Below, piece by piece: positions 44,209-64,000 of a DNA stretch of 64,000 nucleotides. Below the pieces are notes generated by a model, which saw only the letters and a list, made by a program, of their open reading frames with translations, was not told the origin of the DNA and did not search any database. Source of the stretch: Gammaproteobacteria bacterium (GTDB lineage Bacteria > Pseudomonadota > Gammaproteobacteria > Eutrophobiales > Eutrophobiaceae); NCBI GenBank assembly GCA_965243205.1, contig CBDEUK010000001.1, forward strand, positions 395,828 to 459,827, given 5' to 3'. Position 1 is the stretch's first letter; every line of letters starts with the position of its first letter. Made by a program: the position numbers and the translations under genes.

Positions 44209-44219
44209 ATCAGTTTATA

Positions 44220-46070
44220 TCAACTATTCGACTGCCTTACGCCATAGAGCTTCGCATAGAGACCATCTTGTGACAGTAATTCTTTATGACTACCCTGTTC
44301 ACTAACTTGACCAGATTCAAACACATAAACTCGATCAGCTTGTTTTATAGCGCTTAAACGATGCGCGACAATAATTGTGGTACGTTCTTTTAAGAAATCA
44401 CTTAATGCAGTATGCAACTGATATTCGGTTTCAGCATCTAAAGCAGACGTTGCTTCATCCAATATAACAACCTTAGGTTCACTCAGAATCATTCGTGCAA
44501 TCGCTAAACGTTGACGTTGTCCGCCCGATAGACGAACACCTTGTCGACCAACGATCGTATCAAGGCCTTCGGCCATTTTTTCAACTGTTTCTTTAAGTTG
44601 AGCTATCTCTAAGGCTTGCCATAACTTTTCATCATCAAACTCTTTGCCCAAAGTTAAATTAGTTCTTACTGTATCGTTAAACAATGCAGGGTTTTGTAAA
44701 ACGGTTGCCACGTTTTCTCTTACAACATCAAGACCTATTTTATTAACTGGTTTATTTCCGTAATAAACCATGCCAGATTTTGCTGAATATAAACCAATTA
44801 AGATCGATACCATTGTAGATTTGCCACCACCACTAGCACCTACTAATGCAACTTTATCTCCAGCATTGATATCAAGATTCACACCACTTAAAACATCTGG
44901 TCCATCGCCGTATGAAAAATGTATGTCTTCTATATTTATCCCAACAGTGGTTGTATCTTCAAAAGGGTTTTCAAAATGTGGATACTCAGGCTCTTCTTCT
45001 AATTCCATAAGATCATTAATACGTTTTAATGCGGCCTTTGCTGAATAATATGCATACTGAATATTTAATACTTCTTGCACTGGCCCCATCATGAACCAAA
45101 GATATCCAAACACAGCAAACATCTTTCCTATAGTGAGCCCTGAAAAAATCACCATTAACATGGCAACAGCTCTAAACACATCAAAGCCAAACAAAAAGAT
45201 CACAAAACTGAGTTTGCCCGCTGCTTCACTCTTCCAGGCAAACTGACCACTGAAATCTTTCACTGATCTAGCTTGATCGATAATTTGATGAATGTAATGT
45301 TTTTCTCGATTACTGGCGCGTATTTGATGAATAGATTCTAAAGTTTCCGTTAATGATTGTTGAAAAATCGCAAAGGCCGAGTTTTCATCTTTTTTAAGTT
45401 CTTTAACTTTGTTGCCTAAGATCATCGTAAAATAAATGACCAATGGATTAGCAAATAAAATTAATAACGCAAGCTGCCAATGCATCCATAATAAAATGAT
45501 AGCCACACCAATAATGGTTAAAACAGCAACTAATAATTTACTAATGGTCGTACCAACGAATTGATCCACTGTTTCTAAATCCGTCACGAAATACGAAGAA
45601 ACCGTACCGCTACCCAAGGTTTCATATTCAGACATTGAAACGCGTTCTAAACGTTGTAACAAAGCAGCTCGAATTCGAAAAATCACATCTTTGGCAACAA
45701 GGGTGAATTGCCGTGATTGCCAAACATTCAGTACCAGTGATACTAACCTCAAAATTAAGGTAATAAATAATATGGAAATAATGTACAGAGCAGGAACCTG
45801 CCACGTTTCTGGTGTGTAGTTATTTATCGTATTAACAACTGGACCTGGTTGATTCAAAAGAACTTCATCAACCAATAATGGCATCAGTAATGGTAAAGGC
45901 ACACTGGTTATAGTACCCAGTATTGCAATCATATTAGCCAGAAAGATTTCTCGCTTATGTTCTTTAGCTACATTCCAAATATAATTCCAGTTATAGGTAA
46001 CCGGTTTATTTTTTTCTGTTTGAGAAGAAATAATGTCTCTTGATGGGGAATTGTCTAATACGCTACTCAT
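44220..46070 (-). CDS. ABC exporter (fused TMD-NBD)
   Basis: GASGGGKST, LSGGQRQR, ILDEATSALD, VAHRLS. No N-terminal C39 domain. Confidence 0.93.
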   Translation of the reverse strand: MSSVLDNSPSRDIISSQTEKNKPVTYNWNYIWNVAKEHKREIFLANMIAILGTITSVPLPLLMPLLVDEVLLNQPGPVVNTINNYTPETWQVPALYIISILFITLILRLVSLVLNVWQSRQFTLVAKDVIFRIRAALLQRLERVSMSEYETLGSGTVSSYFVTDLETVDQFVGTTISKLLVAVLTIIGVAIILLWMHWQLALLILFANPLVIYFTMILGNKVKELKKDENSAFAIFQQSLTETLESIHQIRASNREKHYIHQIIDQARSVKDFSGQFAWKSEAAGKLSFVIFLFGFDVFRAVAMLMVIFSGLTIGKMFAVFGYLWFMMGPVQEVLNIQYAYYSAKAALKRINDLMELEEEPEYPHFENPFEDTTTVGINIEDIHFSYGDGPDVLSGVNLDINAGDKVALVGASGGGKSTMVSILIGLYSAKSGMVYYGNKPVNKIGLDVVRENVATVLQNPALFNDTVRTNLTLGKEFDDEKLWQALEIAQLKETVEKMAEGLDTIVGRQGVRLSGGQRQRLAIARMILSEPKVVILDEATSALDAETEYQLHTALSDFLKERTTIIVAHRLSAIKQADRVYVFESGQVSEQGSHKELLSQDGLYAKLYGVRQSNS

Positions 46071-46130
46071 GAATATGTTTGATTAATTATTATCCATTTA
46101 TATGTGCACAGCTTATGCCAGTTGCTGCAT

Positions 46131-47120
46131 CTAAGGCAACCATTCTAATGGAGGCTCTTCTAATAAAGCGGCCTGCTCTCTTAAATTCAAAATATGCTCT
46201 TCCCAGTATTTTTGGCTATTGAAGTGCGGAAATGCTAGAGGAAATGCAGGGTCAGTCCAACGTCTGGCGATCCATGCAGCAAAATAGATCAGCCTGTAGG
46301 TACGTAATACTTCAATTAAACCTAATTCCTTAGTATTGAAATGTCGAAACTCAGTATATCCTTCTAAAAAATCGTATAACCGTGCTGTCATGTATTGCCT
46401 ATCACCTGATAAAAACATCCAGATATCCTGAATTGCTGGACCTGTCCGTGCATCGTCGAAGTCTAAAATCATCGGCTTTTCGTCATACCATAATATATTT
46501 CCCGGGTGGGCATCACCATGTAATCTCAGTTGTTGAACATCGCCAATATTGGTTAATACACCTTCTATGCGTTGTACAATATCTTCAATAATCGTTTTAT
46601 AGGTATATTCAAGTTCAGGTGGTAAAAACTGATTGGTAATTAAATAATCGCTTGCCTGTAAGACATAAGACTCCAAACTAATCTCAGGCCGATGCTGGAA
46701 AGAGTCTGTTTCACCAATTGAATGTATGCGAGCAATAAATCGACCAATCATTTTTAAATGCTCGGAATTATCTAGTTCAGGAGGTCTTCCACCAACACAT
46801 GGGTAAACGGCAAATCGATATGCCCCATCATGTAATAATGTATTTCCATTTGAGGAAACTATAGGAGCAATCACAGGTAACTCTTGCTCGACCAATTCTT
46901 GGGTATAAACATGCTCCTCTTGAATTGTTTCATCACTCCAACGCTTAGGTCGATAAAATTTAACCACTATTGGTGCTTGTTCATGCAAACCAATACGATA
47001 AACTCGATTTTCATAACTATTTAACGCCGTTATACATCCATCCGTGTCATAACCGGCCAATTCTAAGATGGTTAAAATTTCATTCGGGCCTAATGATAAA
47101 AAAAGTTCTGATTCATCCAT
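46131..47120 (-). CDS. srkA: stress response kinase SrkA (RdoA/YihE)
   Basis: LNSYENRVY, KFYRP.RWS, RLHGDAHPGN, LDFDD, WTDPAFPLAFP. Confidence 0.93.
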   Translation of the reverse strand: MDESELFLSLGPNEILTILELAGYDTDGCITALNSYENRVYRIGLHEQAPIVVKFYRPKRWSDETIQEEHVYTQELVEQELPVIAPIVSSNGNTLLHDGAYRFAVYPCVGGRPPELDNSEHLKMIGRFIARIHSIGETDSFQHRPEISLESYVLQASDYLITNQFLPPELEYTYKTIIEDIVQRIEGVLTNIGDVQQLRLHGDAHPGNILWYDEKPMILDFDDARTGPAIQDIWMFLSGDRQYMTARLYDFLEGYTEFRHFNTKELGLIEVLRTYRLIYFAAWIARRWTDPAFPLAFPHFNSQKYWEEHILNLREQAALLEEPPLEWLP

Positions 47121-47189
47121 TGCTGTACCATTAACGTTTCTGCATAATTTGTCCAGATATAATTAAAATAATTCAATGACTGTATAATT

Positions 47190-47873
47190 ATGAAACGGCT
47201 AATTCTTATAGCACTATTGTTCACATCTTTTTCGTTGAGTAGCCAAGAAACAGAGCAAGACTTAACGGAACCCAAAAATAATACCGATATATACAAAGCA
47301 TTTTGGAAGAAACTGTATGCAAATGGCGGTTGGTCACTTTATTGTGGCTTTCGATTTAATCAGAATGGTGAGACCGAAGATAAAGGACGAATTCAAATCG
47401 AACGTGTCTATCCTTTGCAATGGATTATTGAAACACTCACGTGCAAAAACCGTTTAGATTGTCATCAATCAGAATCAAAGAAATTTAAAGCCATTGAGTC
47501 AGATTTGCATAATATCTACCCTGTCTGGTGGGAAATACAAAGTACAAAGTTTGATTCAAGTTATGGAGAACTGCCTGGTGAAGAAAAACGTTTTGAAGAT
47601 TGTGATTTTGAAAGAAGTAAAAATATTACTGAACCAAGAGAAATTGCCAGAGGCAATATAGCCCGTGCAATTTTTTATATGCATAATCACTATGGCTTAC
47701 CTATTAAGCCCGAGCTTTTAAAAACTTTACTTAAATGGAATAAAGAAGATTTGCCGAGCGAACAAGAAATCTATCGAAATAATATTATTGAAAAGATTCA
47801 GGGCAATCGAAATCCTTTTATCGATAACCCTAATCTTGTAAATAAACTAAAAATTGTTAAGCGCACTGACTAA
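47190..47873 (+). CDS. endonuclease I (EndA/Vvn) homologue with a degenerate active site
   Basis: Signal peptide, LYCG, ESDLHNIYP, EPREIARGNIARAIFYM, IQGNRNPFI. The EH motif is replaced by ER. Confidence 0.8.
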   Translation: MKRLILIALLFTSFSLSSQETEQDLTEPKNNTDIYKAFWKKLYANGGWSLYCGFRFNQNGETEDKGRIQIERVYPLQWIIETLTCKNRLDCHQSESKKFKAIESDLHNIYPVWWEIQSTKFDSSYGELPGEEKRFEDCDFERSKNITEPREIARGNIARAIFYMHNHYGLPIKPELLKTLLKWNKEDLPSEQEIYRNNIIEKIQGNRNPFIDNPNLVNKLKIVKRTD

Positions 47874-48693
47874 CGCGTTTGATATGCGCGCTTGAAAAGC
47901 TTACACGTTCTCCTTTCTGCTTTAAATATTTGGCTTCTAGATTATATGCCAAGTGTTCTAATTTATTCTTACATGATACTTGTTCGTCATGATCATTTTC
48001 ATATTGAACATAATGAACCAACTCATGCAATAAAATTGATTTACCTTTTTCTGTATTAAGATCAATCGAATCCAACAAATAAACCGTTTTGTTTTTGTAA
48101 TTATATAAACCAAAAATTTGCATATTTTTCTGACTCATTGCTCTTGGCATATCTTTACCAAATGCAATTTTAAACATCTGTCTAGAATTTACTTTTTTCA
48201 CTTCAGGCATATCACCTGTCATTTTAACACCTACACCTTTGACTTCCGCATAAACCCAATTCAAAAGCTCATTAATTTCTTGTTTTTGTTGTGCGTTATA
48301 ATCACTTTCCTCGTGAATTTGTTCTTGGATTGAATAATGATGACTGTGATCATGGTGATGATCATGACTTTTTGTAGCAGCAGCGACGGTTTGAGATAGT
48401 AAAGAAGCGCCTAATACCATCATAGGCATTACCTTCCTTCTTCTATCATTTTTAACCGTTTGGAAAGAGTCCCGTTGGTCCTCTTTTAAGAAAATACTAT
48501 TTTCTTTGGCAAACTGATTAAGTTGCGCAAAAAACACCGGGTTCCTATCACGCAACCCTTTCTTGTAGACAATAGCTTCTTGGCCGTTGATGATACACGG
48601 GTGTACAACGTTATCTGATTTATTGAATTTTTTATTATTCAGAAAAAATAATCTATCAAGCCAACCAAATGATCGAAGTTTTAATTGAGCCAT
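47857..48693 (-). CDS. HExxH-domain protein with an internal signal-like segment and a His-rich linker
   Basis: RRRKVMPMMVLGASLLSQTVAAA, HDHHHDHSHH, GLYN, SILLHELVHYVQ, C..KLE..AY. Confidence 0.65.
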   Translation of the reverse strand: MAQLKLRSFGWLDRLFFLNNKKFNKSDNVVHPCIINGQEAIVYKKGLRDRNPVFFAQLNQFAKENSIFLKEDQRDSFQTVKNDRRRKVMPMMVLGASLLSQTVAAATKSHDHHHDHSHHYSIQEQIHEESDYNAQQKQEINELLNWVYAEVKGVGVKMTGDMPEVKKVNSRQMFKIAFGKDMPRAMSQKNMQIFGLYNYKNKTVYLLDSIDLNTEKGKSILLHELVHYVQYENDHDEQVSCKNKLEHLAYNLEAKYLKQKGERVSFSSAHIKRVSQCA

Positions 48694-48860
48694 TTATCAC
48701 CTTTAACATTAATTTAAGACATAGATAACTTAATCTTTAGCGACTTTAAAACTTTAAAACTTAAGTTTTATTGTCTATTTGAGAGTGGAGATGTGAATAA
48801 GTCGTGGTTTATTTTAAACCACCATTGCAATGTTTTTTTGAATAACCGATATGTTGCTAA

Positions 48861-50984
48861 TTAGAAACCCGTTTCTCTAATAAACACAGCAAATATTTGT
48901 TGTTTCACACGGTTATAGATTGATATAGGTTTAGTCTCAACATGTACTGTGCCACGCAATACATGCATAAAATCTAGATTAGGTTGAGTTGGCTCCAGAA
49001 CAACTTTATAAGTAGCAGATTCAGGTATTTTTTCTTTATCTGAATTATTGCGAGTAACTATTTCACCCCCAAATTCATGATTTACATAATCCGTTTCTAA
49101 ATTTTTTACATTGGAAGTCTGTATTTCATTAATCTTAACTTCAAATTTACTGAGTTCGATATTTTCTGGATAAAAATGTCCATATTGCTCTATGGCAATA
49201 CGTGAAATTTCTTTTTCTGATACAAAGGCAACGACTTGGTTATCATGCTCATCTATAATATTCATTAATGGTATTTCTTGATTTATCCATCTTTCAGTAT
49301 GGAGATTGTCATAAACGTCAATCACTTTACCTTTGATTGGTGAATAAATATTTAGCAATTCTGCTTCATTCTCCAAACCTATTTTTTTTGAATTTAATTC
49401 ATCAAGACTACTTAACATAACATGAATATCTTTTAGCCCTTCTTTACTCGAACTTAAACGTTTAATTTTTAACTCTAGCGCTTCAATTTGTTTTTGAGTT
49501 TTTGCTAGTTCTTCAGTTAAAACAGGCGAATCTAATTTTAATAATAATTGATCTTTTTCGATTAGTTCTCCTTCTGAAACAGCTAGCTCTACAATTTGCG
49601 ATTCAACTGGTGAAAAGATAGTGATATTTTCAGTGCTTTCTATAATTGCAGGCAATCGGATAGTCGAACTCCAAGGCAAAAATAAAACATATAAAAAATT
49701 TATAAATAACGCCAAAGCAATGTAAAAACGCCTTGATTTAAGGATATTAGTTTTCATACCCCACCACTGTGAAATTTCTCGATAAACAGGCAATAAAATA
49801 AACCAAACAATTTCTATTAAAAATAATACGATGCCTAATAGTTTGATAAAAAAATGATAGACCAATAAAGCGATACCAAGAAATAAAAAAAAACGATAAA
49901 CCCAGGTAAACCAAGCATAAAACACCATTTTATTCATCGTGGATTTAGGTAAGTTTTCTGGCTTTGGTAAACCCAACCCAAATAGTATTTCACGCAATTT
50001 CCATTGCCCTAACTTAAATGCTCTACCTTGTAAGTTTTCTACACTCCAATAATCAGACAACAAATAATAACCATCGAATCTCATAAATGGATTTAGATTA
50101 ATTGCAACTGACATTAACCAACTACTCGTGGCTAAAAGAAAAACTATGCTTCTAAATACTCCATCATCTAAAAAAGACCAAACTAAAGTAGCAATACATG
50201 CAATATATATTTCAATCTGCATTCCAGCAGCACCAATATGTAAACGCTGTTTTCTTGATTTTATTTTCCAAGAATCACTTACATCCGTATAAAGAACTGG
50301 AAACATTATTAAGAAAGCAACACCTATCGTGCTTACTTTTGTACCATATCGAGTAGCCGTATAAGCGTGTCCTAACTCGTGAAATATTTTTAAAAAACAA
50401 ATTGAAATTAAATAAAGTACTAAACCATTTAAATTAAAAAAATATAAAAAAGAATTTACAAATACATCCCATTGCCTAGCAACCAAATAAAAACCCAGTA
50501 TTCCTATTAGAAAAATAAAATAAAAAAATGTTTTGCTATATAAAGGTTCAACGATAGAGAGTGTATTTTTAAGAAATTTATCAGGCTTAACGAGAGGTAT
50601 TCTAAAATACAAGTAATTATGCACAATCTGAGAAGCCCAACTTTTTTTAGACTGTTCGTATTGCTCAATATAATCATCAATGGTGCCATGCGGCGATAAT
50701 ACTGTTAAACCGTTTCCTTGAAGAAATGTTACAAACTGTTTTATATCGTCTTCTGTAACCCTACAAACTGTTTCTGCATTCACTTTTTCAATCAAAGTAT
50801 TTATTGTACCAACAGACCACCTTGAGATAATCTGAAATGCTGACCAACCGATTTTATAATATCGATTTCTTATTGGATCGAAGATATTCCAGGTTGGAGA
50901 ACCATCATATGCTGAAGAAGCCTCTATCAGTTGTAAGTCTTCTCTGATTTTTGGTAATGGTATATCTTCAACAATAACGCTCAT
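48861..50984 (-). CDS. M50 (site-2) intramembrane peptidase fused to an HlyD-like adaptor domain, with a PqqD/RRE-like N-terminus
   Basis: IFHELGH and NLNPFMRFDGYY motifs, multiple TM helices. C-terminal lipoyl-hairpin (SPVESQI...GELI / coiled coil / IYSPIKGKV). Confidence 0.85.
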   Translation of the reverse strand: MSVIVEDIPLPKIREDLQLIEASSAYDGSPTWNIFDPIRNRYYKIGWSAFQIISRWSVGTINTLIEKVNAETVCRVTEDDIKQFVTFLQGNGLTVLSPHGTIDDYIEQYEQSKKSWASQIVHNYLYFRIPLVKPDKFLKNTLSIVEPLYSKTFFYFIFLIGILGFYLVARQWDVFVNSFLYFFNLNGLVLYLISICFLKIFHELGHAYTATRYGTKVSTIGVAFLIMFPVLYTDVSDSWKIKSRKQRLHIGAAGMQIEIYIACIATLVWSFLDDGVFRSIVFLLATSSWLMSVAINLNPFMRFDGYYLLSDYWSVENLQGRAFKLGQWKLREILFGLGLPKPENLPKSTMNKMVFYAWFTWVYRFFLFLGIALLVYHFFIKLLGIVLFLIEIVWFILLPVYREISQWWGMKTNILKSRRFYIALALFINFLYVLFLPWSSTIRLPAIIESTENITIFSPVESQIVELAVSEGELIEKDQLLLKLDSPVLTEELAKTQKQIEALELKIKRLSSSKEGLKDIHVMLSSLDELNSKKIGLENEAELLNIYSPIKGKVIDVYDNLHTERWINQEIPLMNIIDEHDNQVVAFVSEKEISRIAIEQYGHFYPENIELSKFEVKINEIQTSNVKNLETDYVNHEFGGEIVTRNNSDKEKIPESATYKVVLEPTQPNLDFMHVLRGTVHVETKPISIYNRVKQQIFAVFIRETGF

Positions 50985-52330
50985 AGGCCAATGTATTGTC
51001 TTACAGTAGAAATAGGTCGTCGGAACAAAAAGAAAAATAATGGTACTTTTTCGCCATAAATTTTTGCAGTTCCTTGCAAACCTATACGCAATTTATTTTC
51101 AGGGTTATCAAACTCAGCATATAATCGATACGCTAAAACATTGCTTGGAGTAACTTCAGCGTTATAAGTTGTCTCAATTAGTTTTGCACTTAATGAATCT
51201 AAAGGCGAAATATCCAGAAAAATATCAACTCGAGCATTTTCTTTGAGTAAAATTGAATCAGCAACAGGTAAATCAATTTTTAATTTAATTTTTTCTGGGT
51301 TTGCAATCTCCATAATACGTTCACCAACTCTTACAGATTTTCCAATCCAATCATCCTTATCCGAATAAATTAATAAACCATCTTTTTTTGCTTTAACAAC
51401 AACCTGACTTAATAATTCCTTTGAGTAATTAAGTTCAGCTTTTCTTAAATCCACTTCTGATTTTAATAATGCAATTTCTGCCTTACTTTTTTTATCTCCG
51501 AAAGCCGCTTGTTTTACTTTTTTTAATTCAGAAACTGTTACAGATAATGCTTTTTCTGCTAATTCAAATTGATTTCTTAGATTAGTATCTTCAAAAATAA
51601 ATATCTCATCATTTTCTCTAATATAATGATTAGGTTCGTGATTAATCTTTGCAATAACACCATCAATAGGTGCACTAATAATCACTGGATCCTTCGCTAC
51701 TATTTCGACAGGTGCTAAGGCTGACATTCTTACTGGAATTAAACCAGTTAACATCAAGCATGCGGCGATAAAATATTTTTTATAATTTTTTATTTTGCTA
51801 ATAGCAGAAAAAGAATTTTTACCGACTAACGCGCCCCATGCATGCGCATATGTATCAGAAAGATGTTTTATTAAGGTAATTTCATTATCTTGCCATGCTG
51901 TTTCTCTCGAAAACCAAATACCTCCTATTTGTTTACCGTTAGGTATTTTTAATGGTACCCATAAAGCAAATGGCAAGGAATATTCTTTCCATTCATCTTT
52001 AAAATCGGCAGGACAATTATTCCCATGTATCTGAAATACAGAATCAAGCTTGCTATCTTTCTTTAAGAAATTCGCCAAGCGAGTTAACCAATCTATAAAA
52101 GGTGTGTTTTGATCAATGATAGATAAACTGGATACAGCTTCGATGCTTAGTGGTTTATTTTTATTTCCTCTAGTAGAAAATAAAAATGCTTGACGATAGT
52201 TAACTAATTTTCTGGTTTCGTTAACAATTAAAAATTGTAAGGATTTTTCAGACTCAGACTCACGAGCCATGGCCTCTAACTGAAGTAGAGTCGATAATCC
52301 TGCTGATTCATTTTTTTGATCAGCTCCCAT
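50981..52330 (-). CDS. membrane fusion (HlyD-like) protein with a cytoplasmic GAF-like N-terminal domain
   Basis: LQFLIVNETRKLV.YRQA..LWVPL..GGIWFSR domain, one TM helix, ISAPIDGVI, coiled coil, VRVGERIMEI, LRIGLQGTAKI. Confidence 0.82.
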   Translation of the reverse strand: MGADQKNESAGLSTLLQLEAMARESESEKSLQFLIVNETRKLVNYRQAFLFSTRGNKNKPLSIEAVSSLSIIDQNTPFIDWLTRLANFLKKDSKLDSVFQIHGNNCPADFKDEWKEYSLPFALWVPLKIPNGKQIGGIWFSRETAWQDNEITLIKHLSDTYAHAWGALVGKNSFSAISKIKNYKKYFIAACLMLTGLIPVRMSALAPVEIVAKDPVIISAPIDGVIAKINHEPNHYIRENDEIFIFEDTNLRNQFELAEKALSVTVSELKKVKQAAFGDKKSKAEIALLKSEVDLRKAELNYSKELLSQVVVKAKKDGLLIYSDKDDWIGKSVRVGERIMEIANPEKIKLKIDLPVADSILLKENARVDIFLDISPLDSLSAKLIETTYNAEVTPSNVLAYRLYAEFDNPENKLRIGLQGTAKIYGEKVPLFFFLFRRPISTVRQYIGL

Positions 52331-52335
52331 AACGA

Positions 52336-53121
52336 TTAAAGTTCCGGTTTCTGAAATTTAGCTGTGCCACTCATACCTGATAAAACATTTGCAGACTCTT
52401 CAAATTCTCCTTTGATCGCAATTGTTTGACTAACAGGATCGACAACAGCGCCTAACTTAGTTACTTTGGCTTTATAAGTTGTACTTGTCTCATCAACATT
52501 AAAATCAAATTCTACTCCAGGATTTAACCACTGTAGCCAATTAGAAGGAACTATCACTTCTATCTCTAATTTATCTTCATTTAAAATAGAAAGCAGTTCT
52601 TGGTCTTTACCAACACTTTCATATTGGTTAACCATATTTTCTATCACCCTACCATCATAAGGAGCTTTGATTTTACAACGACTCACATTCACGTTATTAC
52701 TACTGACATTGGCTTTGGTTTTTTTGACATCAATAGCCGCTAAATCTGCCTCTATTTGGCTACCAGCACTTAATTTAAGTAATTGGTTTTTATTTTCTAA
52801 TTGTTTTCTCGCACTTTCTAACTCGGCTTTAGCAACGGCTAATTCAGCGTAATAATAAGAGCAATCAAATTTAACTAATACATCTCCTTTTTTAAAAACA
52901 TCTCCATCTTTAAAAGGTAATTCATCAATTTGAGCTGCAATTTCACTGGATAATACAGCAGTAATAATTGGTTTTATTAAACCACGGATCGTAGTTAACT
53001 CAGTGTTATATAAATCATCAGTATCTTCCTCTTGCGAGGAAACACTCAATGAGCTTATTAAAACAAATACGGCTAAAAATAGTTTAGTTAGATTCAACGT
53101 TTTCATAGAATTTTCTACCAA
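52336..53121 (-). CDS. periplasmic adaptor (MFP) subunit
   Basis: Signal peptide, LSSEIAAQI..DGDVFKKGDVLVKFDC, CKIKAPYDGRV, VDPVSQT, GMSGTA. Confidence 0.87.
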   Translation of the reverse strand: MVENSMKTLNLTKLFLAVFVLISSLSVSSQEEDTDDLYNTELTTIRGLIKPIITAVLSSEIAAQIDELPFKDGDVFKKGDVLVKFDCSYYYAELAVAKAELESARKQLENKNQLLKLSAGSQIEADLAAIDVKKTKANVSSNNVNVSRCKIKAPYDGRVIENMVNQYESVGKDQELLSILNEDKLEIEVIVPSNWLQWLNPGVEFDFNVDETSTTYKAKVTKLGAVVDPVSQTIAIKGEFEESANVLSGMSGTAKFQKPEL

Positions 53122-53153
53122 AAAATTTCACGATAATCAGTAAGAGTAATCTC

Positions 53154-54689
53154 TTATTCTGGTATCGACTCTAACCAAAAAGTATTGAGAGAAAAATTAT
53201 TGATTCTGGATTTAAAATTTTGAAAATAAGATTCTAAATCTCTAGCAAGGTCCTTTACAGAACTCTTGTTAATTTTATCAGGAACAGGATCCACACCAAT
53301 CGCAGCATACATATCGGCATATGAATTTTCTAAATCTGCATAAGCAATATCGTATTTGACTTCGGCAACTAAAGTATTCATTTCTTCGCGGATGACAGAT
53401 TGTTCACTAACTGAATTTGTTGCCGCTGCAACTTGAATTTGATCGAGTATTTTTGATTGCGTTTTATAATAATCCGCTGCTGTTTTATATTCGTTTTTAG
53501 AGTGGCTATATTGTGCCAAACTAACGTGAACTTGAGTTAATACCGCCATACTCATTGCTAACTTTCTGGCTTTTAATACCATTTCTTGAGCTTCTGTTGC
53601 ACGTTTGGTCGCTGGTAATTTAAATACATTTAATAAATTCCAACTGACTTTTGCGCCATAGCTCAACCAATCGTTATTAAATAAAAAACTATTGCTACTG
53701 TAATTTTCACCAACATTGAGATTAATGCCAGGTAATAATTGCAAAATAGCAACTTTCGTTTCTTTGGCATTAATGCGCTGTTGATACGCTATCTCTCTTA
53801 ATTCTGAACGATGGACTAATGAAAGCTCTTCCATCATTTGCGCCGATAAACCAATATCTTGAACTTGCTCAACACGTTCTGGTATCACCAAGCTATAATC
53901 TGTACCTGGTTCTAAATTCATTAATGCAGCCAATTGAATTTTGGCTAATGATAATTCCCTTTGTAACTCTTCTAATTCGCGCTTGATGCCGATTAATTCA
54001 CGCTGATAAGTTAACGCCGTTAATGGTTTATCTAATTGATTGATTTCGATCTCTTTTGACTGTGCTATCGCTTCTTTTACTTTCTCCAATAAAACTTCCA
54101 TTTTTTGATTCAAGCGATCGTTGCTCACAGCACGCCAATATAGTGCTCTGACATCCTGTACAAGATCATTTACAACTTTGCGGCGTTGTTCATCAGCGAT
54201 CAATATTTTATCTGCCGCTTGTTTTGAACGAATGTAAGAGACACCAAAATCAAGGATATTCCAAGATAGCGTAATATCACCTGTAAAAACATCGCGATCA
54301 GACGAAGTAGAAGATTGAAGAGATTGCACTCCTGTCAATAAAGAACGACTAGAAGCACCTGAAAAATTATCACGACCTGCATAACCGAAATTTCCAACTA
54401 ACTGAGGTAATTCATCATATCTTGCTAAATCAAGTTCACGTTGTGCAAGAAGTCTTTCAGTGACTTCTAAACGTAAATCCAAATTATGTGAAAGCGCGCG
54501 AGCAAAAGCTTCAAACAGTCCAATTGGACCTGAAACTGGTTCTTGGTTTTGTGTAATTTCTTCTTGGTCAGCCTCTGCTTGTTCCCTTAATTCTGTCTGA
54601 TTCAGAGGCACAGGCATCACCGAACAACCTGAAAATATACAGGCTAGAGCTAAGATAAACGCAATTTTTATCCATTTTGAATGGTTCAT
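53154..54689 (-). CDS. TolC-family outer membrane factor (lipoprotein)
   Basis: Lipobox IFSGC, ARALSHNLD, LSWNILDFG and VSWNLLNVF repeats, long helices. Confidence 0.9.
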   Translation of the reverse strand: MNHSKWIKIAFILALACIFSGCSVMPVPLNQTELREQAEADQEEITQNQEPVSGPIGLFEAFARALSHNLDLRLEVTERLLAQRELDLARYDELPQLVGNFGYAGRDNFSGASSRSLLTGVQSLQSSTSSDRDVFTGDITLSWNILDFGVSYIRSKQAADKILIADEQRRKVVNDLVQDVRALYWRAVSNDRLNQKMEVLLEKVKEAIAQSKEIEINQLDKPLTALTYQRELIGIKRELEELQRELSLAKIQLAALMNLEPGTDYSLVIPERVEQVQDIGLSAQMMEELSLVHRSELREIAYQQRINAKETKVAILQLLPGINLNVGENYSSNSFLFNNDWLSYGAKVSWNLLNVFKLPATKRATEAQEMVLKARKLAMSMAVLTQVHVSLAQYSHSKNEYKTAADYYKTQSKILDQIQVAAATNSVSEQSVIREEMNTLVAEVKYDIAYADLENSYADMYAAIGVDPVPDKINKSSVKDLARDLESYFQNFKSRINNFSLNTFWLESIPE

Positions 54690-54757
54690 CGAGAAAACTT
54701 AACAAATTTATTTTAGTTGTACCAGTAATTTGTTCATTTTATTAGACTTTTATCAAA

Positions 54758-57700
54758 TTAACCTTTATCTAATATCTGAGAAATTGCATCTGCATTTTTT
54801 TCAAACTCTCCAGCAACTTGGGTAATTTGGCTGGAAAATAAATCAGTCCCCGTCGCAGCAACTGTATTTTCAACGCTAAATTCACTAATCACCCCTGTTT
54901 GTACTTCAATATCCACATATCGAATTACTTCTACTCCATTACTAAGTTCGACTTCAATCATTAATCGGATATTTTCGGCATCAACTGGAGGTTGTCCAAT
55001 CACTTGTTGATTTTCATCATTGAAAACTAACCAATCAGGTAACGCATCTCCATTCGATTGACTCACCTTCACATCACTTACTTCTAAGGTTGGATCTGAA
55101 ATAATGATGTAATCAATATCTAAAAATAGTGTTTTGTTGTAAATCAATGTTTCAAGAATCAATTCATCCTGTAAGTTCGCTCCTACATCACCCTCACCTA
55201 AACGTAATGGAAATAAACTATCGACTGAAGAAGTATTAGATTCTGATATAACTGAACGTATAGATGATCCTTTAACAGAATTCGCATCAAAAAACCCTGT
55301 TGTATCTGCATTAAGAACATCTAAACTCTCACCAAACGGATTACTATTAACGGATCGAACCGCATCAATAACAGCACCTGGTGCTGTCACAGAGTTATAT
55401 TCTGAATTGATATCCCCTTCTATAAACCCATCATCCAATCTTAATAAGTTTTCAGGAACAGGATTATCGTCACCTAAATCAGTTGGCCCTGAAGAAGATG
55501 TTGAATTCACAGTAATTGTGACCGTGGCTGTATTGCCTTCAGAGTTAGTATATGTAAATGTATCTGGACCACTAAAACCTGGATTAGGTGTATAAGTCAC
55601 TTCTCCTGTAGCTGGGTTCACACTCGTTGTTCCATTAGTGCCATTTGTTGCTGATACCAACGTCGCATCATTACCATCAATATCCGTATCATTCGCTATC
55701 ACATTAACTGTTACTGGTGTGCCTTCATTCGTTACAGCAAAGTCATCAACTGGAACGCTAGGATCATTAACTGGATTCACAGTAATCGTTACTAATGCAG
55801 TATCAACATCTCCGTCTGCATCTGTTATTGTATAAGTAAAGGTATCTGTACCTTCGAAGTTTGCTCGTGGTGTATACTGAAATGTTCCATCTGTATTCAT
55901 TACCACAGTTCCACCATTTGTAGTTGTAACTGGTGCTGAATAGGTTGATGGGCCATCACCTTGAGCAGGATCGTTAACTGATACATCACTATTCAAAATA
56001 GTATCTTCTGCAGTTATAAAAGCATCATCTGCTGCATTTGGAACTAAATCTCCCTCATCAACCACATTGATTATTAAAGTCGCACTACCAGTATTTCCAT
56101 TATTATCTGTAATTGTATAGTTAAAAGTCTCAGTTAAACCTATTACTGGCACTGTGCCTGATGGCGGTGGTGAATAAATATAACTTCCATCAGGGTTTAT
56201 CGTTAAAGTGCCGCCATTAACAGTTGAAAAAGGTATTCCTAGTGTAATCGGAGTACCTCCCTCAGTAACAGCCGTAACAGTTGATGGTCCTGTTCCAATA
56301 TCATCGTTACCCAAAACATTTCCTGTTGTATTAGCGCCTCCTTCAGTAGCAGAATCTATATCATTAACAGGATCAGGTGTAGGTATAACGTTAATCGTCA
56401 CGGTCGCGGTCGAGACATCACCATCGGCATCGGTTAAGTCATACGTAAAACTGTCCGGGCCGTTGTAGTTCGCATTCGGGGTATAGGTAAACGTCCCATC
56501 GGCGTTCATCACCACCGTACCGTTGGTCGCATTGGTGTTCACACTGAACACATTACCGCCATCGCCACTCAAGGTATCGTTGCCACTGACATCGCCATTG
56601 AACACCGTATCCTCGGTCGCGTTCACCGTATCGTTGACCGCCACCGGCGTATCGTCCACCGGCGCCACGTTAATCGTCACGGTCGCGGTCGAGACATCAC
56701 CATCGGCATCGGTTAAGTCATACGTAAAACTGTCCGGGCCGTTGTAGTTCGCATTCGGGGTATAGGTAAACGTCCCATCGGCGTTCATCACCACCGTACC
56801 GTTGGTCGCATTGGTGTTCACACTGAACACATTACCGCCATCGCCACTCAAGGTATCGTTGCCACTGACATCGCCATTGAACACCGTATCCTCGGTCGCG
56901 TTCACCGTATCGTTGACCGCCACCGGCGTATCGTCCACCGGCGCCACGTTAATCGTCACGGTCGCGGTCGAGACATCACCATCGGCATCGGTTAAGTCAT
57001 ACGTAAAACTGTCCGGGCCGTTGTAGTTCGCATTCGGGGTATAGGTAAACGTCCCATCGGCGTTCATCACCACCGTACCGTTGGTCGCATTGGTGTTCAC
57101 ACTGAACACATTACCGCCATCGCCACTCAAGGTATCGTTGCCACTGACATCGCCATTGAACACCGTATCCTCGGTCGCGTTCACCGTATCGTTGACCGCC
57201 ACCGGCGTATCGTCCACCGGCGCCACGTTAATCGTCACGGTCGCGGTCGAGACATCACCATCGGCATCGGTTAAGTCATACGTAAAACTGTCCGGGCCGT
57301 TGTAGTTCGCATTCGGGGTATAGGTAAACGTCCCATCGGCGTTCATCACCACCGTACCGTTGGTCGCATTGGTGTTCACACTGAACACATTACCGCCATC
57401 GCCACTCAAGGTATCGTTGCCACTGACATCGCCATTGAACACCGTATCCTCGGTCGCGTTCACCGTATCGTTGACCGCCACCGGCGTATCGTCCACCGGC
57501 GCCACGTTAATCGTCACGGTCGCGGTCGAGACATCACCATCGGCATCGGTTAAGTCATACGTAAAACTGTCCGGGCCGTTGTAGTTCGCATTCGGGGTAT
57601 AGGTAAACGTCCCATCGGCGTTCATCACCACCGTACCGTTGGTCGCATTGGTGTTCACACTGAACACATTACCGCCATCGCCACTCAAGGTATCGTTGCC

Positions 57701-60700
57701 ACTGACATCGCCATTGAACACCGTATCCTCGGTCGCGTTCACCGTATCGTTGACCGCCACCGGCGTATCGTCCACCGGCGCCACGTTAATCGTCACGGTC
57801 GCGGTCGAGACATCACCATCGGCATCGGTTAAGTCATACGTAAAACTGTCCGGGCCGTTGTAGTTCGCATTCGGGGTATAGGTAAACGTCCCATCGGCGT
57901 TCATCACCACCGTACCGTTGGTCGCATTGGTGTTCACACTGAACACATTACCGCCATCGCCACTCAAGGTATCGTTGCCACTGACATCGCCATTGAACAC
58001 CGTATCCTCGGTCGCGTTCACCGTATCGTTGACCGCCACCGGCGTATCGTCCACCGGCGCCACGTTAATCGTCACGGTCGCGGTCGAGACATCACCATCG
58101 GCATCGGTTAAGTCATACGTAAAACTGTCCGGGCCGTTGTAGTTCGCATTCGGGGTATAGGTAAACGTCCCATCGGCGTTCATCACCACCGTACCGTTGG
58201 TCGCATTGGTGTTCACACTGAACACATTACCGCCATCGCCACTCAAGGTATCGTTGCCACTGACATCGCCATTGAACACCGTATCCTCGGTCGCGTTCAC
58301 CGTATCGTTGACCGCCACCGGCGTATCGTCCACCGGCGCCACGTTAATCGTCACGGTCGCGGTCGAGACATCACCATCGGCATCGGTTAAGTCATACGTA
58401 AAACTGTCCGGGCCGTTGTAGTTCGCATTCGGGGTATAGGTAAACGTCCCATCGGCGTTCATCACCACCGTACCGTTGGTCGCATTGGTGTTCACACTGA
58501 ACACATTACCGCCATCGCCACTCAAGGTATCGTTGCCACTGACATCGCCATTGAACACCGTATCCTCGGTCGCGTTCACCGTATCGTTGACCGCCACCGG
58601 CGTATCGTCCACCGGCGCCACGTTAATCGTCACGGTCGCGGTCGAGACATCACCATCGGCATCGGTTAAGTCATACGTAAAACTGTCCGGGCCGTTGTAG
58701 TTCGCATTCGGGGTATAGGTAAACGTCCCATCGGCGTTCATCACCACCGTACCGTTGGTCGCATTGGTGTTCACACTGAACACATTACCGCCATCGCCAC
58801 TCAAGGTATCGTTGCCACTGACATCGCCATTGAACACCGTATCCTCGGTCGCGTTCACCGTATCGTTGACCGCCACCGGCGTATCGTCCACCGGCGCCAC
58901 GTTAATCGTCACGGTCGCGGTCGAGACATCACCATCGGCATCGGTTAAGTCATACGTAAAACTGTCCGGGCCGTTGTAGTTCGCATTCGGGGTATAGGTA
59001 AACGTCCCATCGGCGTTCATCACCACCGTACCGTTGGTCGCATTGGTGTTCACACTGAACACATTACCGCCATCGCCACTCAAGGTATCGTTGCCACTGA
59101 CATCGCCATTGAACACCGTATCCTCGGTCGCGTTCACCGTATCGTTGACCGCCACCGGCGTATCGTCCACCGGCGCCACGTTAATCGTCACGGTCGCGGT
59201 CGAGACATCACCATCGGCATCGGTTAAGTCATACGTAAAACTGTCCGGGCCGTTGTAGTTCGCATTCGGGGTATAGGTAAACGTCCCATCGGCGTTCATC
59301 ACCACCGTACCGTTGGTCGCATTGGTGTTCACACTGAACACATTACCGCCATCGCCACTCAAGGTATCGTTGCCACTGACATCGCCATTGAACACCGTAT
59401 CCTCGGTCGCGTTCACCGTATCGTTGACCGCCACCGGCGTATCGTCCACCGGCGCCACGTTAATCGTCACGGTCGCGGTCGAGACATCACCATCGGCATC
59501 GGTTAAGTCATACGTAAAACTGTCCGGGCCGTTGTAGTTCGCATTCGGGGTATAGGTAAACGTCCCATCGGCGTTCATCACCACCGTACCGTTGGTCGCA
59601 TTGGTGTTCACACTGAACACATTACCGCCATCGCCACTCAAGGTATCGTTGCCACTGACATCGCCATTGAACACCGTATCCTCGGTCGCGTTCACCGTAT
59701 CGTTGACCGCCACCGGCGTATCGTCCACCGGCGCCACGTTAATCGTCACGGTCGCGGTCGAGACATCACCATCGGCATCGGTTAAGTCATACGTAAAACT
59801 GTCCGGGCCGTTGTAGTTCGCATTCGGGGTATAGGTAAACGTCCCATCGGCGTTCATCACCACCGTACCGTTGGTCGCATTGGTGTTCACACTGAACACA
59901 TTACCGCCATCGCCACTCAAGGTATCGTTGCCACTGACATCGCCATTGAACACCGTATCCTCGGTCGCGTTCACCGTATCGTTGACCGCCACCGGCGTAT
60001 CGTCCACCGGCGCCACGTTAATCGTCACGGTCGCGGTCGAGACATCACCATCGGCATCGGTTAAGTCATACGTAAAACTGTCCGGGCCGTTGTAGTTCGC
60101 ATTCGGGGTATAGGTAAACGTCCCATCGGCGTTCATCACCACCGTACCGTTGGTCGCATTGGTGTTCACACTGAACACATTACCGCCATCGCCACTCAAG
60201 GTATCGTTGCCACTGACATCGCCATTGAACACCGTATCCTCGGTCGCGTTCACCGTATCGTTGACCGCCACCGGCGTATCGTCCACCGGCGCCACGTTAA
60301 TCGTCACGGTCGCGGTCGAGACATCACCATCGGCATCGGTTAAGTCATACGTAAAACTGTCCGGGCCGTTGTAGTTCGCATTCGGGGTATAGGTAAACGT
60401 CCCATCGGCGTTCATCACCACCGTACCGTTGGTCGCATTGGTGTTCACACTGAACACATTACCGCCATCGCCACTCAAGGTATCGTTGCCACTGACATCG
60501 CCATTGAACACCGTATCCTCGGTCGCGTTCACCGTATCGTTGACCGCCACCGGCGTATCGTCCACCGGCGCCACGTTAATCGTCACGGTCGCGGTCGAGA
60601 CATCACCATCGGCATCGGTTAAGTCATACGTAAAACTGTCCGGGCCGTTGTAGTTCGCATTCGGGGTATAGGTAAACGTCCCATCGGCGTTCATCACCAC

Positions 60701-63700
60701 CGTACCGTTGGTCGCATTGGTGTTCACACTGAACACATTACCGCCATCGCCACTCAAGGTATCGTTGCCACTGACATCGCCATTGAACACCGTATCCTCG
60801 GTCGCGTTCACCGTATCGTTGACCGCCACCGGCGTATCGTCCACCGGCGCCACGTTAATCGTCACGGTCGCGGTCGAGACATCACCATCGGCATCGGTTA
60901 AGTCATACGTAAAACTGTCCGGGCCGTTGTAGTTCGCATTCGGGGTATAGGTAAACGTCCCATCGGCGTTCATCACCACCGTACCGTTGGTCGCATTGGT
61001 GTTCACACTGAACACATTACCGCCATCGCCACTCAAGGTATCGTTGCCACTGACATCGCCATTGAACACCGTATCCTCGGTCGCGTTCACCGTATCGTTG
61101 ACCGCCACCGGCGTATCGTCCACCGGCGCCACGTTAATCGTCACGGTCGCGGTCGAGACATCACCATCGGCATCGGTTAAGTCATACGTAAAACTGTCCG
61201 GGCCGTTGTAGTTCGCATTCGGGGCTATAGGTAAACGTCCCATCGGCGTTCATCACCACCGTACCGTTGGTCGCATTGGTGTTCACACTGAACACATTAC
61301 CGCCATCGCCACTCAAGGTATCGTTGCCACTGACATCGCCATTGAACACCGTATCCTCGGTCGCGTTCACCGTATCGTTGACCGCCACCGGCGTATCGTC
61401 CACCGGCGCCACGTTAATCGTCACGGTCGCGGTCGAGACATCACCATCGGCATCGGTTAAGTCATACGTAAAACTGTCCGGGCCGTTGTAGTTCGCATTC
61501 GGGGTATAGGTAAACGTCCCATCGGCGTTCATCACCACCGTACCGTTGGTCGCATTGGTGTTCACACTGAACACATTACCGCCATCGCCACTCAAGGTAT
61601 CGTTGCCACTGACATCGCCATTGAACACCGTATCCTCGGTCGCGTTCACCGTATCGTTGACCGCCACCGGCGTATCGTCCACCGGCGCCACGTTAATCGT
61701 CACGGTCGCGGTCGAGACATCACCATCGGCATCGGTTAAGTCATACGTAAAACTGTCCGGGCCGTTGTAGTTCGCATTCGGGGTATAGGTAAACGTCCCA
61801 TCGGCGTTCATCACCACCGTACCGTTGGTCGCATTGGTGTTCACACTGAACACATTACCGCCATCGCCACTCAAGGTATCGTTGCCACTGACATCGCCAT
61901 TGAACACCGTATCCTCGGTCGCGTTCACCGTATCGTTGACCGCCACCGGCGTATCGTCCACCGGCGCCACGTTAATCGTCACGGTCGCGGTCGAGACATC
62001 ACCATCGGCATCGGTTAAGTCATACGTAAAACTGTCCGGGCCGTTGTAGTTCGCATTCGGGGTATAGGTAAACGTCCCATCGGCGTTCATCACCACCGTA
62101 CCGTTGGTCGCATTGGTGTTCACACTGAACACATTACCGCCATCGCCACTCAAGGTATCGTTGCCACTGACATCGCCATTGAACACCGTATCCTCGGTCG
62201 CGTTCACCGTATCGTTGACCGCCACCGGCGTATCGTCCACCGGCGCCACGTTAATCGTCACGGTCGCGGTCGAGACATCACCATCGGCATCGGTTAAGTC
62301 ATACGTAAAACTGTCCGGGCCGTTGTAGTTCGCATTCGGGGTATAGGTAAACGTCCCATCGGCGTTCATCACCACCGTACCGTTGGTCGCATTGGTGTTC
62401 ACACTGAACACATTACCGCCATCGCCACTCAAGGTATCGTTGCCACTGACATCGCCATTGAACACCGTATCCTCGGTCGCGTTCACCGTATCGTTGACCG
62501 CCACCGGCGTATCGTCCACCGGCGCCACGTTAATCGTCACGGTCGCGGTCGAGACATCACCATCGGCATCGGTTAAGTCATACGTAAAACTGTCCGGGCC
62601 GTTGTAGTTCGCATTCGGGGTATAGGTAAACGTCCCATCGGCGTTCATCACCACCGTACCGTTGGTCGCATTGGTGTTCACACTGAACACATTACCGCCA
62701 TCGCCACTCAAGGTATCGTTGCCACTGACATCGCCATTGAACACCGTATCCTCGGTCGCGTTCACCGTATCGTTGACCGCCACCGGCGTATCGTCCACCG
62801 GCGCCACGTTAATCGTCACGGTCGCGGTCGAGACATCACCATCGGCATCGGTTAAGTCATACGTAAAACTGTCCGGGCCGTTGTAGTTCGCATTCGGGGT
62901 ATAGGTAAACGTCCCATCGGCGTTCATCACCACCGTACCGTTGGTCGCATTGGTGTTCACACTGAACACATTACCGCCATCGCCACTCAAGGTATCGTTG
63001 CCACTGACATCGCCATTGAACACCGTATCCTCGGTCGCGTTCACCGTATCGTTGACCGCCACCGGCGTATCGTCCACCGGCGCCACGTTAATCGTCACGG
63101 TCGCGGTCGAGACATCACCATCGGCATCGGTTAAGTCATACGTAAAACTGTCCGGGCCGTTGTAGTTCGCATTCGGGGTATAGGTAAACGTCCCATCGGC
63201 GTTCATCACCACCGTACCGTTGGTCGCATTGGTGTTCACACTGAACACATTACCGCCATCGCCACTCAAGGTATCGTTGCCACTGACATCGCCATTGAAC
63301 ACCGTATCCTCGGTCGCGTTCACCGTATCGTTGACCGCCACCGGCGTATCGTCCACCGGCGCCACGTTAATCGTCACGGTCGCGGTCGAGACATCACCAT
63401 CGGCATCGGTTAAGTCATACGTAAAACTGTCCGGGCCGTTGTAGTTCGCATTCGGGGTATAGGTAAACGTCCCATCGGCGTTCATCACCACCGTACCGTT
63501 GGTCGCATTGGTGTTCACACTGAACACATTACCGCCATCGCCACTCAAGGTATCGTTGCCACTGACATCGCCATTGAACACCGTATCCTCGGTCGCGTTC
63601 ACCGTATCGTTGACCGCCACCGGCGTATCGTCCACCGGCGCCACGTTAATCGTCACGGTCGCGGTCGAGACATCACCATCGGCATCGGTTAAGTCATACG

Positions 63701-64000
63701 TAAAACTGTCCGGGCCGTTGTAGTTCGCATTCGGGGTATAGGTAAACGTCCCATCGGCGTTCATCACCACCGTACCGTTGGTCGCATTGGTGTTCACACT
63801 GAACACATTACCGCCATCGCCACTCAAGGTATCGTTGCCACTGACATCGCCATTGAACACCGTATCCTCGGTCGCGTTCACCGTATCGTTGACCGCCACC
63901 GGCGTATCGTCCACCGGCGCCACGTTAATCGTCACGGTCGCGGTCGAGACATCACCATCGGCATCGGTTAAGTCATACGTAAAACTGTCCGGGCCGTTGT
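54758..64000 (-). CDS. giant cadherin/Ig-like repeat surface protein (putative adhesin), open at the window edge, with a 1-bp frameshift at 61225
   Basis: ORFs 61182..63935 and 54758..61243 encode the same 93-aa repeat (PVAVND...ADGTFTYTPNANYNGPDSFTY..TDADG) and join if C61225 is removed. Unique C-terminal region includes LPDWL.F. At least 3080 aa. Confidence 0.9.
56388..64000. repeat. tandem array of a 279-bp unit, about 27.3 copies visible, continuing past the window edge
   Basis: The ORF track shows an exact 279-nt period except for one 280-nt step (60987 to 61267). Translated units are identical, and I saw no nucleotide differences other than C61225. Confidence 0.98.

Follow-up and report, generated by a model that had tools for sequence, protein, structure and literature searches.

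Giant adhesins and RTX proteins are exported by type I secretion systems (T1SS) such as HlyB-HlyD-TolC, LapB-LapC-LapE with LapA as substrate, and SiiCDF with SiiE. In bacteriocin and microcin exporters of the CvaAB-TolC and PCAT1 type the cargo is small, and its leader is cut by a C39 cysteine peptidase fused to an ATP-binding cassette (ABC) transporter. Textbook TolC-coupled machines have an energised inner-membrane transporter, which is of the ABC, resistance-nodulation-division (RND) or major facilitator superfamily (MFS) type. Here we describe a five-gene run in a 64,000-nt stretch of DNA from a Gammaproteobacteria bacterium (GenBank assembly GCA_965243205.1, contig CBDEUK010000001.1, positions 395,828 to 459,827; the whole stretch is called the window below). 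This conserved TolC/adaptor operon lacks a motor and has an intramembrane protease of family M50 where the transporter would stand; a recognizable N-terminal tag on giant surface proteins goes with it. Comparative analysis and structure models favor, with limited confidence, the reading that the run encodes a leader-guided, protease-gated, TolC-coupled export and maturation machine dedicated to the neighboring giant protein.

The closest described system is a module identified in silico from the genome context of secondary SecA_DEAD proteins (Kamneva, Poudel and Ward 2015, PLoS One; PMC4452313). As described in the main text of that paper, it comprises an M50/HlyD protein, a HlyD protein, a GAF/HlyD protein and sometimes an outer-membrane efflux protein (OEP), and a T1SS-like role was proposed in which the SecA-like protein is the ATPase and the M50 protein a possible inner-membrane pore. 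The locus described here has the same three HlyD-bearing proteins (M50, GAF and plain) and, like the published module, no ABC transporter, but it lacks the secondary (truncated) SecA_DEAD protein that the main text gives to the module. That main text, to which the term search was confined, uses none of the expressions giant, adhesin, leader, cargo or large protein. A full-text search, which likewise did not cover supplements, found no paper linking M50-HlyD modules to giant proteins or to proteins with the LEPR-XLL motif. Two papers mention LEPR-XLL in passing, and the string M50 turned up in two reviews by coincidence; an Azospirillum paper, in the part of its text available to us, reports DUF4347 proteins with no secretion link, and the available part of a Chlorochromatium preprint deals with ordinary T1SS components. 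The 2015 paper was the only description of the module that we found, and the giant protein as its putative cargo and the link to a leader motif are new here.

Compared with a T1SS, the locus is alike in placing a TolC-type outer-membrane factor (OMF) and a HlyD-type adaptor (membrane fusion protein, MFP) beside a giant, Cys-free, acidic calcium-binding repeat protein without a Sec signal peptide. HlyD_3 matches in three of the operon's proteins and an OEP match in the fourth supply the HlyD-type MFP and TolC-type OMF that a T1SS requires. It differs in that no ABC gene (HlyB, LapB or PrtD type) is encoded with the MFPs, in having three different adaptors rather than one, in a giant protein that lacks RTX nonapeptides, in a conserved leader at the N-terminus where a T1SS substrate has its signal at the C-terminus, and in the presence of an intramembrane metalloprotease.

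The five genes lie on the minus strand in the order giant repeat protein, TolC-type channel, soluble adaptor, GAF-adaptor and M50-protease-adaptor fusion (Table 1). Open reading frame (ORF) calls reproduced the same-strand run and the spacing given by the first-pass annotation of the window, with gaps of 68, 32 and 5 nt and, between the GAF-MFP and M50-MFP genes, an overlap of 4 nt. That annotation had also seen no ATPase motifs or efflux pump in the run, which was borne out: no ABC, RND or MFS family was found in the four machine genes with Pfam and NCBIfam, nor any Walker A pattern. Its central claim, that an M50 peptidase occupies the place of the ABC transporter, stands as a description of gene content; as a mechanism, with translocation or a motor role for the M50 protein, it is hypothetical. 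A promoter and terminator scan of 47500-56000 was uninformative, with 24 promoter-like sites (36.8 expected) and 4 terminator-like sites (3.9 expected).

Table 1. Coordinates of the operon and of elements within its products (positions in the window).
Feature	Position	Strand	Evidence
M50-MFP fusion, 707 aa	48861-50984	-	Peptidase_M50 39.2 bits (cut-off 27.2); HlyD_3 30.6 bits
NLNPFMRFDG, second M50 motif (NxxPxxxxDG), fusion residues 296-305	50070-50099	-	sequence
HELGH zinc-binding/catalytic motif, fusion residues 202-206	50367-50381	-	sequence
RRE-like cytoplasmic domain, fusion residues ~10-95	50700-50957	-	AlphaFold2 model, Foldseek
GAF - single transmembrane segment - HlyD-type adaptor, 449 aa	50981-52330	-	HlyD_3 47.2 bits
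Small soluble adaptor (MFP), 261 aa	52336-53121	-	RND_mfp 123.6 bits (cut-off 94.9); HlyD_3 70.7 bits
TolC-type OMF, 511 aa, probable lipoprotein	53154-54689	-	Pfam OEP 116.7 bits, two stretches
Giant protein, C-terminal part, 2161 aa	54758-61243	-	Big_9, Cadherin_4, tandem-95 repeats
Further giant repeat units, other frame, running off the contig end	61182-63998	-	Big_9 609.2 bits; 9 exact unit signatures

The arrangement recurs widely. In GTDB, taken as one genome per species, at least 425 of 590 pattern matches encode a relative of the fusion. The best 80 loci were used for comparison; their parts were called by phmmer and ORF calling, and contiguity was scored over all 80. These loci come from Nitrospira, Nitrosomonas, SAR11 (Pelagibacteraceae), Rhodospirillales, Rhizobiaceae, Hyphomicrobiaceae, Zetaproteobacteria, Micavibrio and Gammaproteobacteria. 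The M50-MFP, GAF-MFP and small MFP genes are contiguous in 58 of the 80; in 19 of the other 22, fewer than three parts were called, 13 of these loci having less than 1.2 kb upstream. An OMF gene is contiguous with the three MFP genes in 36/80, and the order OMF, small MFP, GAF-MFP, M50-MFP recurs in Nitrospira, SAR11, Rhodospirillales, Rhizobiaceae, Zetaproteobacteria and Gammaproteobacteria. Where at least 1 kb was available on both sides (55 loci), an adjacent large ORF on the same strand, defined as at least 900 aa, or at least 300 aa if cut by the locus edge, was found in 41. ABC exporter-like ORFs of at least 500 aa occur in only 2/80 loci (L004 and L048), and a SecA-like ORF in none of the best 80. 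As a check, the first-pass annotation had suggested looking across genomes for co-occurrence of the four genes with giant proteins and without ABC genes, and these counts support such an association.

The giant protein reads, from its N-terminus, as a 107-residue leader, DUF4347 (183 bits), a glycine-rich stretch, Asp-rich calcium-binding-type repeats and the 93-aa units. In the leader, which the first-pass annotation had missed, LEDRILLDA (residues 42-50) comes after a basic patch and before DUF4347. Among neighboring repeat-type giants with a visible N-terminus, all 13 (from 12 loci) carry L-E-x-R-[ILM]-[MVL]-[FL]-D-[AG] within the first ~120 residues, after a basic stretch, and an alignment of 14 leaders shows L42, E43, R45 and D49 without exception, the window's giant included. 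The exceptions in this survey include ORFs of ~1006 aa in L021 and L078, which are membrane proteins of another kind. The motif is related to LEPR-XLL, curated by NCBI as NF012209: this 24-position model gives 16.0 bits on the window's giant (residues 41-58, E 0.0068) and 16.6 bits on a SAR11 giant, both below the cut-off of 17, and no match at E <= 0.01 in three other giants. This giant is the only protein of the window's genome that has the motif close to its N-terminus, the one other regular-expression match lying at residue 228 of a 251-aa ORF. By analogy, a leader of this kind would make the system closer in logic to the leader-cleaving bacteriocin exporters than to a T1SS with a C-terminal signal. 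With those exporters it would share an N-terminal leader recognized and cut by a protease of the inner-membrane exporter, and the Gram-negative ones also couple to an MFP and TolC; the differences are an M50 protease with an RRE-like domain, no ABC transporter, and a cargo of thousands of residues.

The pairing with DUF4347 was followed in a survey of the class (201 genomes, one per family; M50-MFP relative at E <= 1e-40; counts include the unpublished genome G146). M50-MFP relatives occur in 24 of the 201 families, in addition to SAR11, Nitrospira, Nitrosomonas, Azospirillum and Rhizobiaceae, and DUF4347 also occurs in 24 genomes (23 over the cut-off). Both are present in 15 genomes against ~2.9 expected if independent (14/23 when G146 is left out), and in G117, G153, G061 and G146 they lie within a few kb on one contig. 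A profile re-search of five of the nine genomes with DUF4347 only detected a divergent M50-HlyD protein in three (G152, G200 and G020). G152, a complete 2.0-Mb class relative (L094, its contig C1:26000-45999), contains a frame open for 8,630 aa with DUF4347 and a leader motif, LEPRYLLSA, which makes it a further giant with this tag. The gene order there is giant, two further large ORFs, a 605-aa HlyD protein, M50-MFP and a 661-aa SecA-like ORF. This locus is the SecA-bearing variant, the form described by Kamneva et al., and it links the two variants.

These associations also bear on a rival reading of the locus, namely that it encodes an unrelated small-molecule or peptide efflux system, a RiPP-type (peptide made by the ribosome and modified after translation) leader peptidase with adaptors, that stands by chance beside a giant adhesin gene. 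We regard this as very improbable. The best NCBIfam match of the M50 part is indeed a daptide metalloprotease (daptide_HExxH, NF041824; 140 bits over residues 110-397), the N-terminal domain is RRE-like (RiPP recognition element), and the adaptors score best with RND/MacA-type adaptors, all of which such a system would explain. The daptide match, however, misses the equivalog cut-off of 300, and the operon contains no small precursor or modification genes. Moreover, adjacency to giants in 41/55 loci across phyla, with the motif in 13/13 visible N-termini, is far from chance, the window's genome having just 26 frames open for at least 1200 aa in 2.79 Mb.

The 707-aa fusion is built of a cytoplasmic RRE-like N-domain, a polytopic M50 protease of the site-2 type and a periplasmic HlyD-type adaptor. 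Its M50 assignment rests on a Pfam PF02163 score above the gathering threshold together with both sequence motifs, and a profile search of the PDB matched the M50 part to 3b4r (E 8.6e-5) and 7w6x (E 0.014), with matches limited to the adaptor and M50 parts. Orthologues in 60 loci are 57-36% identical to it. H202, E203, H206, N296, P299, D304 and G305 are invariant in 61/61 aligned orthologues; therefore, the protease appears to have been kept active. Cleavage of the substrate by the fusion, which the first-pass annotation had suggested, would fit this invariance. The HExxH and NxxPxxxxDG motifs in membrane segments are shared with the site-2 proteases RseP, SpoIVFB and MjS2P, but the fusion has no PDZ or CBS domain, and its RRE-like and adaptor domains are not found in those enzymes. 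The RiPP M50 leader peptidases are the best family-level match of the M50 part (NF041824), and the RREs of TbiB1, CteB and MccB may have a fold similar to that of the N-domain; the fusion differs from this group in carrying an MFP, in sitting in a TolC operon and in having a giant protein as its putative substrate.

Likeness to site-2 proteases raises the alternative that the locus acts in regulated intramembrane proteolysis or sensing, as RseP or SpoIVFB do, with the GAF domain sensing a ligand and the adaptors and OMF reporting envelope or adhesin status. An M50 protease with intact motifs and a cytoplasmic GAF domain would suit such a role, and the main text of PMC4452313 suggests that the GAF protein serves in regulation or sensing. 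Neither the operon nor the conserved part of the best 80 loci, though, contains a gene for an anti-sigma or transcription factor; a set of three MFPs with an OMF is characteristic of a trans-envelope duct; and the strict link to a tag on giant, Cys-free, acidic proteins points to a cargo and not a signal. We consider this explanation improbable.

Recognition of the substrate by the fusion was also part of the earlier proposal, and here the support is suggestive, from a model of the N-domain and a weak pass in complex prediction. RREs (PqqD-like domains) have a winged-helix fold with three strands and three helices and take up a leader as an extra strand. The AlphaFold2 model of the first 150 residues has the topology E-E-E-H-H-H, with a predicted local distance difference test (pLDDT) of ~91 over residues 11-90. 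In Foldseek searches of the PDB its top matches include TbiB1 with bound leader peptide (5v1u/5v1v; prob 0.94-0.97, TMt 0.66-0.67; E 0.12 for 5v1u) and the RiPP leader-binding proteins CteB (5why) and MccB (3h5r). The domain may thus resemble RiPP leader-binding domains, if weakly. Folding fusion residues 1-445 with leader residues 1-80 as a complex gave scores of 0.58, 0.58 and 0.52, the best of three controls reaching 0.00, which the tool rates as weak support; the runs share at least 61% of contacts, with a partner pLDDT of at least 45.

Taken together, we think that a mechanism along the following lines is somewhat favored. The giant would be made with its N-terminal leader, a basic patch plus L-E-x-R-[ILM]-x-[FL]-D-[AG], ahead of DUF4347. 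The RRE-like domain of the fusion would bind this leader, and the adjoining M50 intramembrane metalloprotease, judging from its invariant catalytic motifs, could remove it. The three HlyD-type adaptors (protease-borne, GAF-linked and soluble) would bridge to the TolC-type channel, through which the unfolded chain could exit, as is expected from what is known of the MFP and OMF families. A broader proposal is more tentative and in our estimate falls short of even chances: that this is a distinct and widespread pathway in which leader-targeted, unfolded giants pass an RRE-M50 gate, a hetero-oligomeric ring of three adaptors and a TolC-type channel with no dedicated ABC transporter and, in the variant found here, no dedicated ATPase either, and that abundant environmental bacteria such as SAR11 and Nitrospira use it as their main route for bringing giants to the surface. 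If this is an export route, it would explain how many giants with neither a signal peptide nor an RTX signal reach the surface, and it would amount to a leader-guided branch of type I-like secretion in which a tag and four genes make a simple system.

Several observations weigh against an export machine of this kind. The operon encodes no energy source, and we know of no M50 protease that translocates proteins. By the criterion used, 14/55 loci have no adjacent large ORF, and the large neighbor in L043 lacks the motif and starts with a signal peptide of the Sec type. In the class survey, 9/24 genomes with M50-MFP showed no DUF4347 and nine showed DUF4347 only; the profile re-search found no M50-HlyD protein in two of the five such genomes covered (G049 and G174). 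The N-domain of the fusion has no Pfam match at E <= 1, and its Foldseek E-values range from 0.075 to 0.9, none at or below 0.001. The mark in the complex prediction was reached in calibration by 58/80 solved complexes and 2/110 mismatched pairs, but scores of 0.60 or less, as obtained here, comprise just 7 of those 80 solved complexes and both mismatches, a band in which predictions fail more often than they succeed, except for guesses that were already likely, and the fold of the partner is uncertain. The giant gene itself has a frame break here and a repeat array of uncertain size. Finally, a complete HlyB/HlyD pair elsewhere in this genome could act in trans, and T1SS-type ABC genes are present in three of the five other module-bearing genomes examined (G002, G003 and G005).

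The last two points define the main competitor, in which the module serves only in processing or retention and the giant crosses the inner membrane through the HlyB/HlyD T1SS or another ABC exporter; the module would then trim or release the N-terminal end, much as LapG/LapD do for LapA, or hold the giant in its own TolC-type channel. Together with the lack of a motor in the module, the ABC genes just named make this conceivable. The window's genome has five ABC_membrane matches, only one of them of T1SS type. This is a 717-aa HlyB (TIGR01846, 1079 bits; cut-off 725.55) with an adjoining HlyD (416.8 bits) at ~805-808 kb of C2, the other contig of the assembly, and the pair adjoins an RTX substrate of its own, of more than 2227 aa. 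The 2161-aa part of the window's giant is devoid of GGxGxD. The module, furthermore, comes with an OMF and three adaptors of its own, for which a protease acting alone would have no use. A module-bearing SAR11 genome (G001; 1.2 Mb, completeness not given) shows no T1SS-type ABC gene by score: its best T1SS scores are 247.2 bits on TIGR03375 and 184.3 bits on TIGR01842, the level of the MsbA-like gene of the window's genome. G004 is ambiguous in this respect (338.6 and 281.3 bits). A trans-acting helper is accordingly not universal among module-bearing genomes, but the HlyB/HlyD pair may still serve as one in this genome; we judge a purely processing or retaining role unlikely. At the HlyB/HlyD locus (C2:797000-807860, L003), a 174-aa ORF of no NCBIfam family lies between the pair and the RTX-type protein, and the latter scores 597.8 bits on the RTX_toxin model, under the cut-off of 1000.

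An ABC gene closer to the operon was considered as the missing pump and rejected as unlikely. This MsbA-like exporter of 616 aa (44220-46070, minus strand) lies 2.8 kb downstream of the operon and had gone unmentioned in the first-pass annotation; the interval contains a 278-aa ORF, an endonuclease I gene of opposite orientation and a SrkA-type kinase gene. Its best NCBIfam match is MsbA, at 359.2 bits against a cut-off of 602, and it stays below every cut-off. The neighbor is common to the closest locus, L004, and not to G166, a genome of the same family, and it is absent from the remaining related loci; G166 retains the module and has no ABC-like ORF in 13 kb downstream. There are three more non-T1SS ABC_membrane matches in the window's genome, and the true MsbA may be any of these or the exporter described here.

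A whole-genome search with PF07517 found no second SecA in the window's genome, only the 904-aa housekeeping SecA and a sub-threshold match of 21 bits. As there is no ATPase in the operon and no second SecA, candidates for the energy source would include the housekeeping SecA, the proton-motive force and folding that calcium drives once the chain is outside the cell. The SecA-like gene of the sister variant suggests, by analogy, a SecA-type push, and the SecA-less form found here sharpens the question of what powers the machine. Among the five other module-bearing genomes examined, G001 has one SecA, and a second SecA_DEAD ORF (697 aa) is present only in G002 (Nitrospira defluvii), ~430 kb from the module.

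The N-domain of the 449-aa adaptor has no Pfam match by sequence (E <= 1), and its model (pLDDT 90.4) has a GAF fold, with 316 PDB matches at E <= 0.001 of which the top ones are GAF domains at prob 1.00; the GAF-like domain that the first-pass annotation had read from the letters is thus confirmed at the level of fold. A transmembrane-like segment spans residues 187-205 of this protein, and HlyD_3 matches its C-terminal half. In the 261-aa adaptor, a signal peptide with a hydrophobic segment at residues 9-27 is followed by SSQEE, with no Cys anchor; its true start is probably the ATG at 53106, six codons inside the ORF that opens with TTG. The signal peptide of the 511-aa OMF, as read from the sequence, ends in FSGC at residues 19-22.

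The giant gene extends beyond the window, whose end is the end of contig C1 in an assembly of two contigs (2.79 Mb). C2 ends in 1,795 nt that exactly match the reverse complement of window positions 54658-56452, which contain the C-terminus of the giant plus 100 nt, and the N-terminus of the giant lies at the C2 end (L001:6675 onward, plus strand). There is one giant gene, situated between a flavodoxin-like gene with an nqr operon and the OMF gene. The first-pass annotation had advised inspecting the sequence beyond position 64000 for the N-terminus and for an ABC gene; the C2 end yielded the former, with no ABC gene upstream of it.

In its C-terminal part the giant scores 1204.6 bits on Big_9 (Pfam) and 1106.5 bits on tandem-95 (NCBIfam). 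The units are 93 aa long (279-nt period) and 97% alike, and they are followed by a unique C-terminus of ~560 aa. The 2161-aa part contains no Cys and has 325 D+E against 13 K+R. A canonical T1SS requires RTX repeats or a C-terminal signal; the RTX nonapeptide GGxGxD occurs 0 times in these 2161 aa, in agreement with the first-pass annotation, which had noted the absence of RTX repeats from this end, though the last residues might act as a signal of non-RTX type. Residues ~290-1000 (L001:7500-9900) form a long Gly-rich stretch with GGxGG runs and many acidic repeats of the DxDxDGxxD type, and match no family at the thresholds used.

Exact unit signatures number 26 in the window (17 in 54758-61243 and 9 in 61182-63998); C2 has 2 that read forward, and a further 26 make up a 7.7-kb block of opposite orientation (L001:10437-18140), which sits between the N-terminal and C-terminal parts of the giant. 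This inverted block is probably an assembly artefact of the 279-nt array, and the true length of the gene is therefore not fixed by the assembly. A 1-nt insertion near 61225, in a CCCC run (61215-61235, minus strand), splits the giant ORF and shifts the register relative to the neighboring unit from +280 to +279; it could be a sequencing error or a true frameshift. The array (54758-64000) has a G+C content of 52-56%, in striking contrast to 31-34% in the four machine genes (48000-54000) and 36.6% in the genome.

Downstream of the M50-MFP gene, after a gap of 167 nt, the 278-aa ORF (47857-48693, minus strand) has a borderline match to DUF3579 (24.8 bits; cut-off 25) and is kept in the closest locus, L004, and not in G166 or the other loci. 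Further along, a 447-aa protein (39223-40566, minus strand) weakly matches TIGR03788, 'marine proteobacterial sortase target protein' (64 bits; cut-off 551.65). No RNA run is listed as containing this stretch. Two sequencing runs (X5 and X6) with the species label of the four runs named next contain no contig matching 44000-56400 at 80% likeness, which is not proof of absence, and the region might be strain-specific. Contigs from four sequencing runs of one study are identical to the window over 44000-56400, and these runs may be its source.

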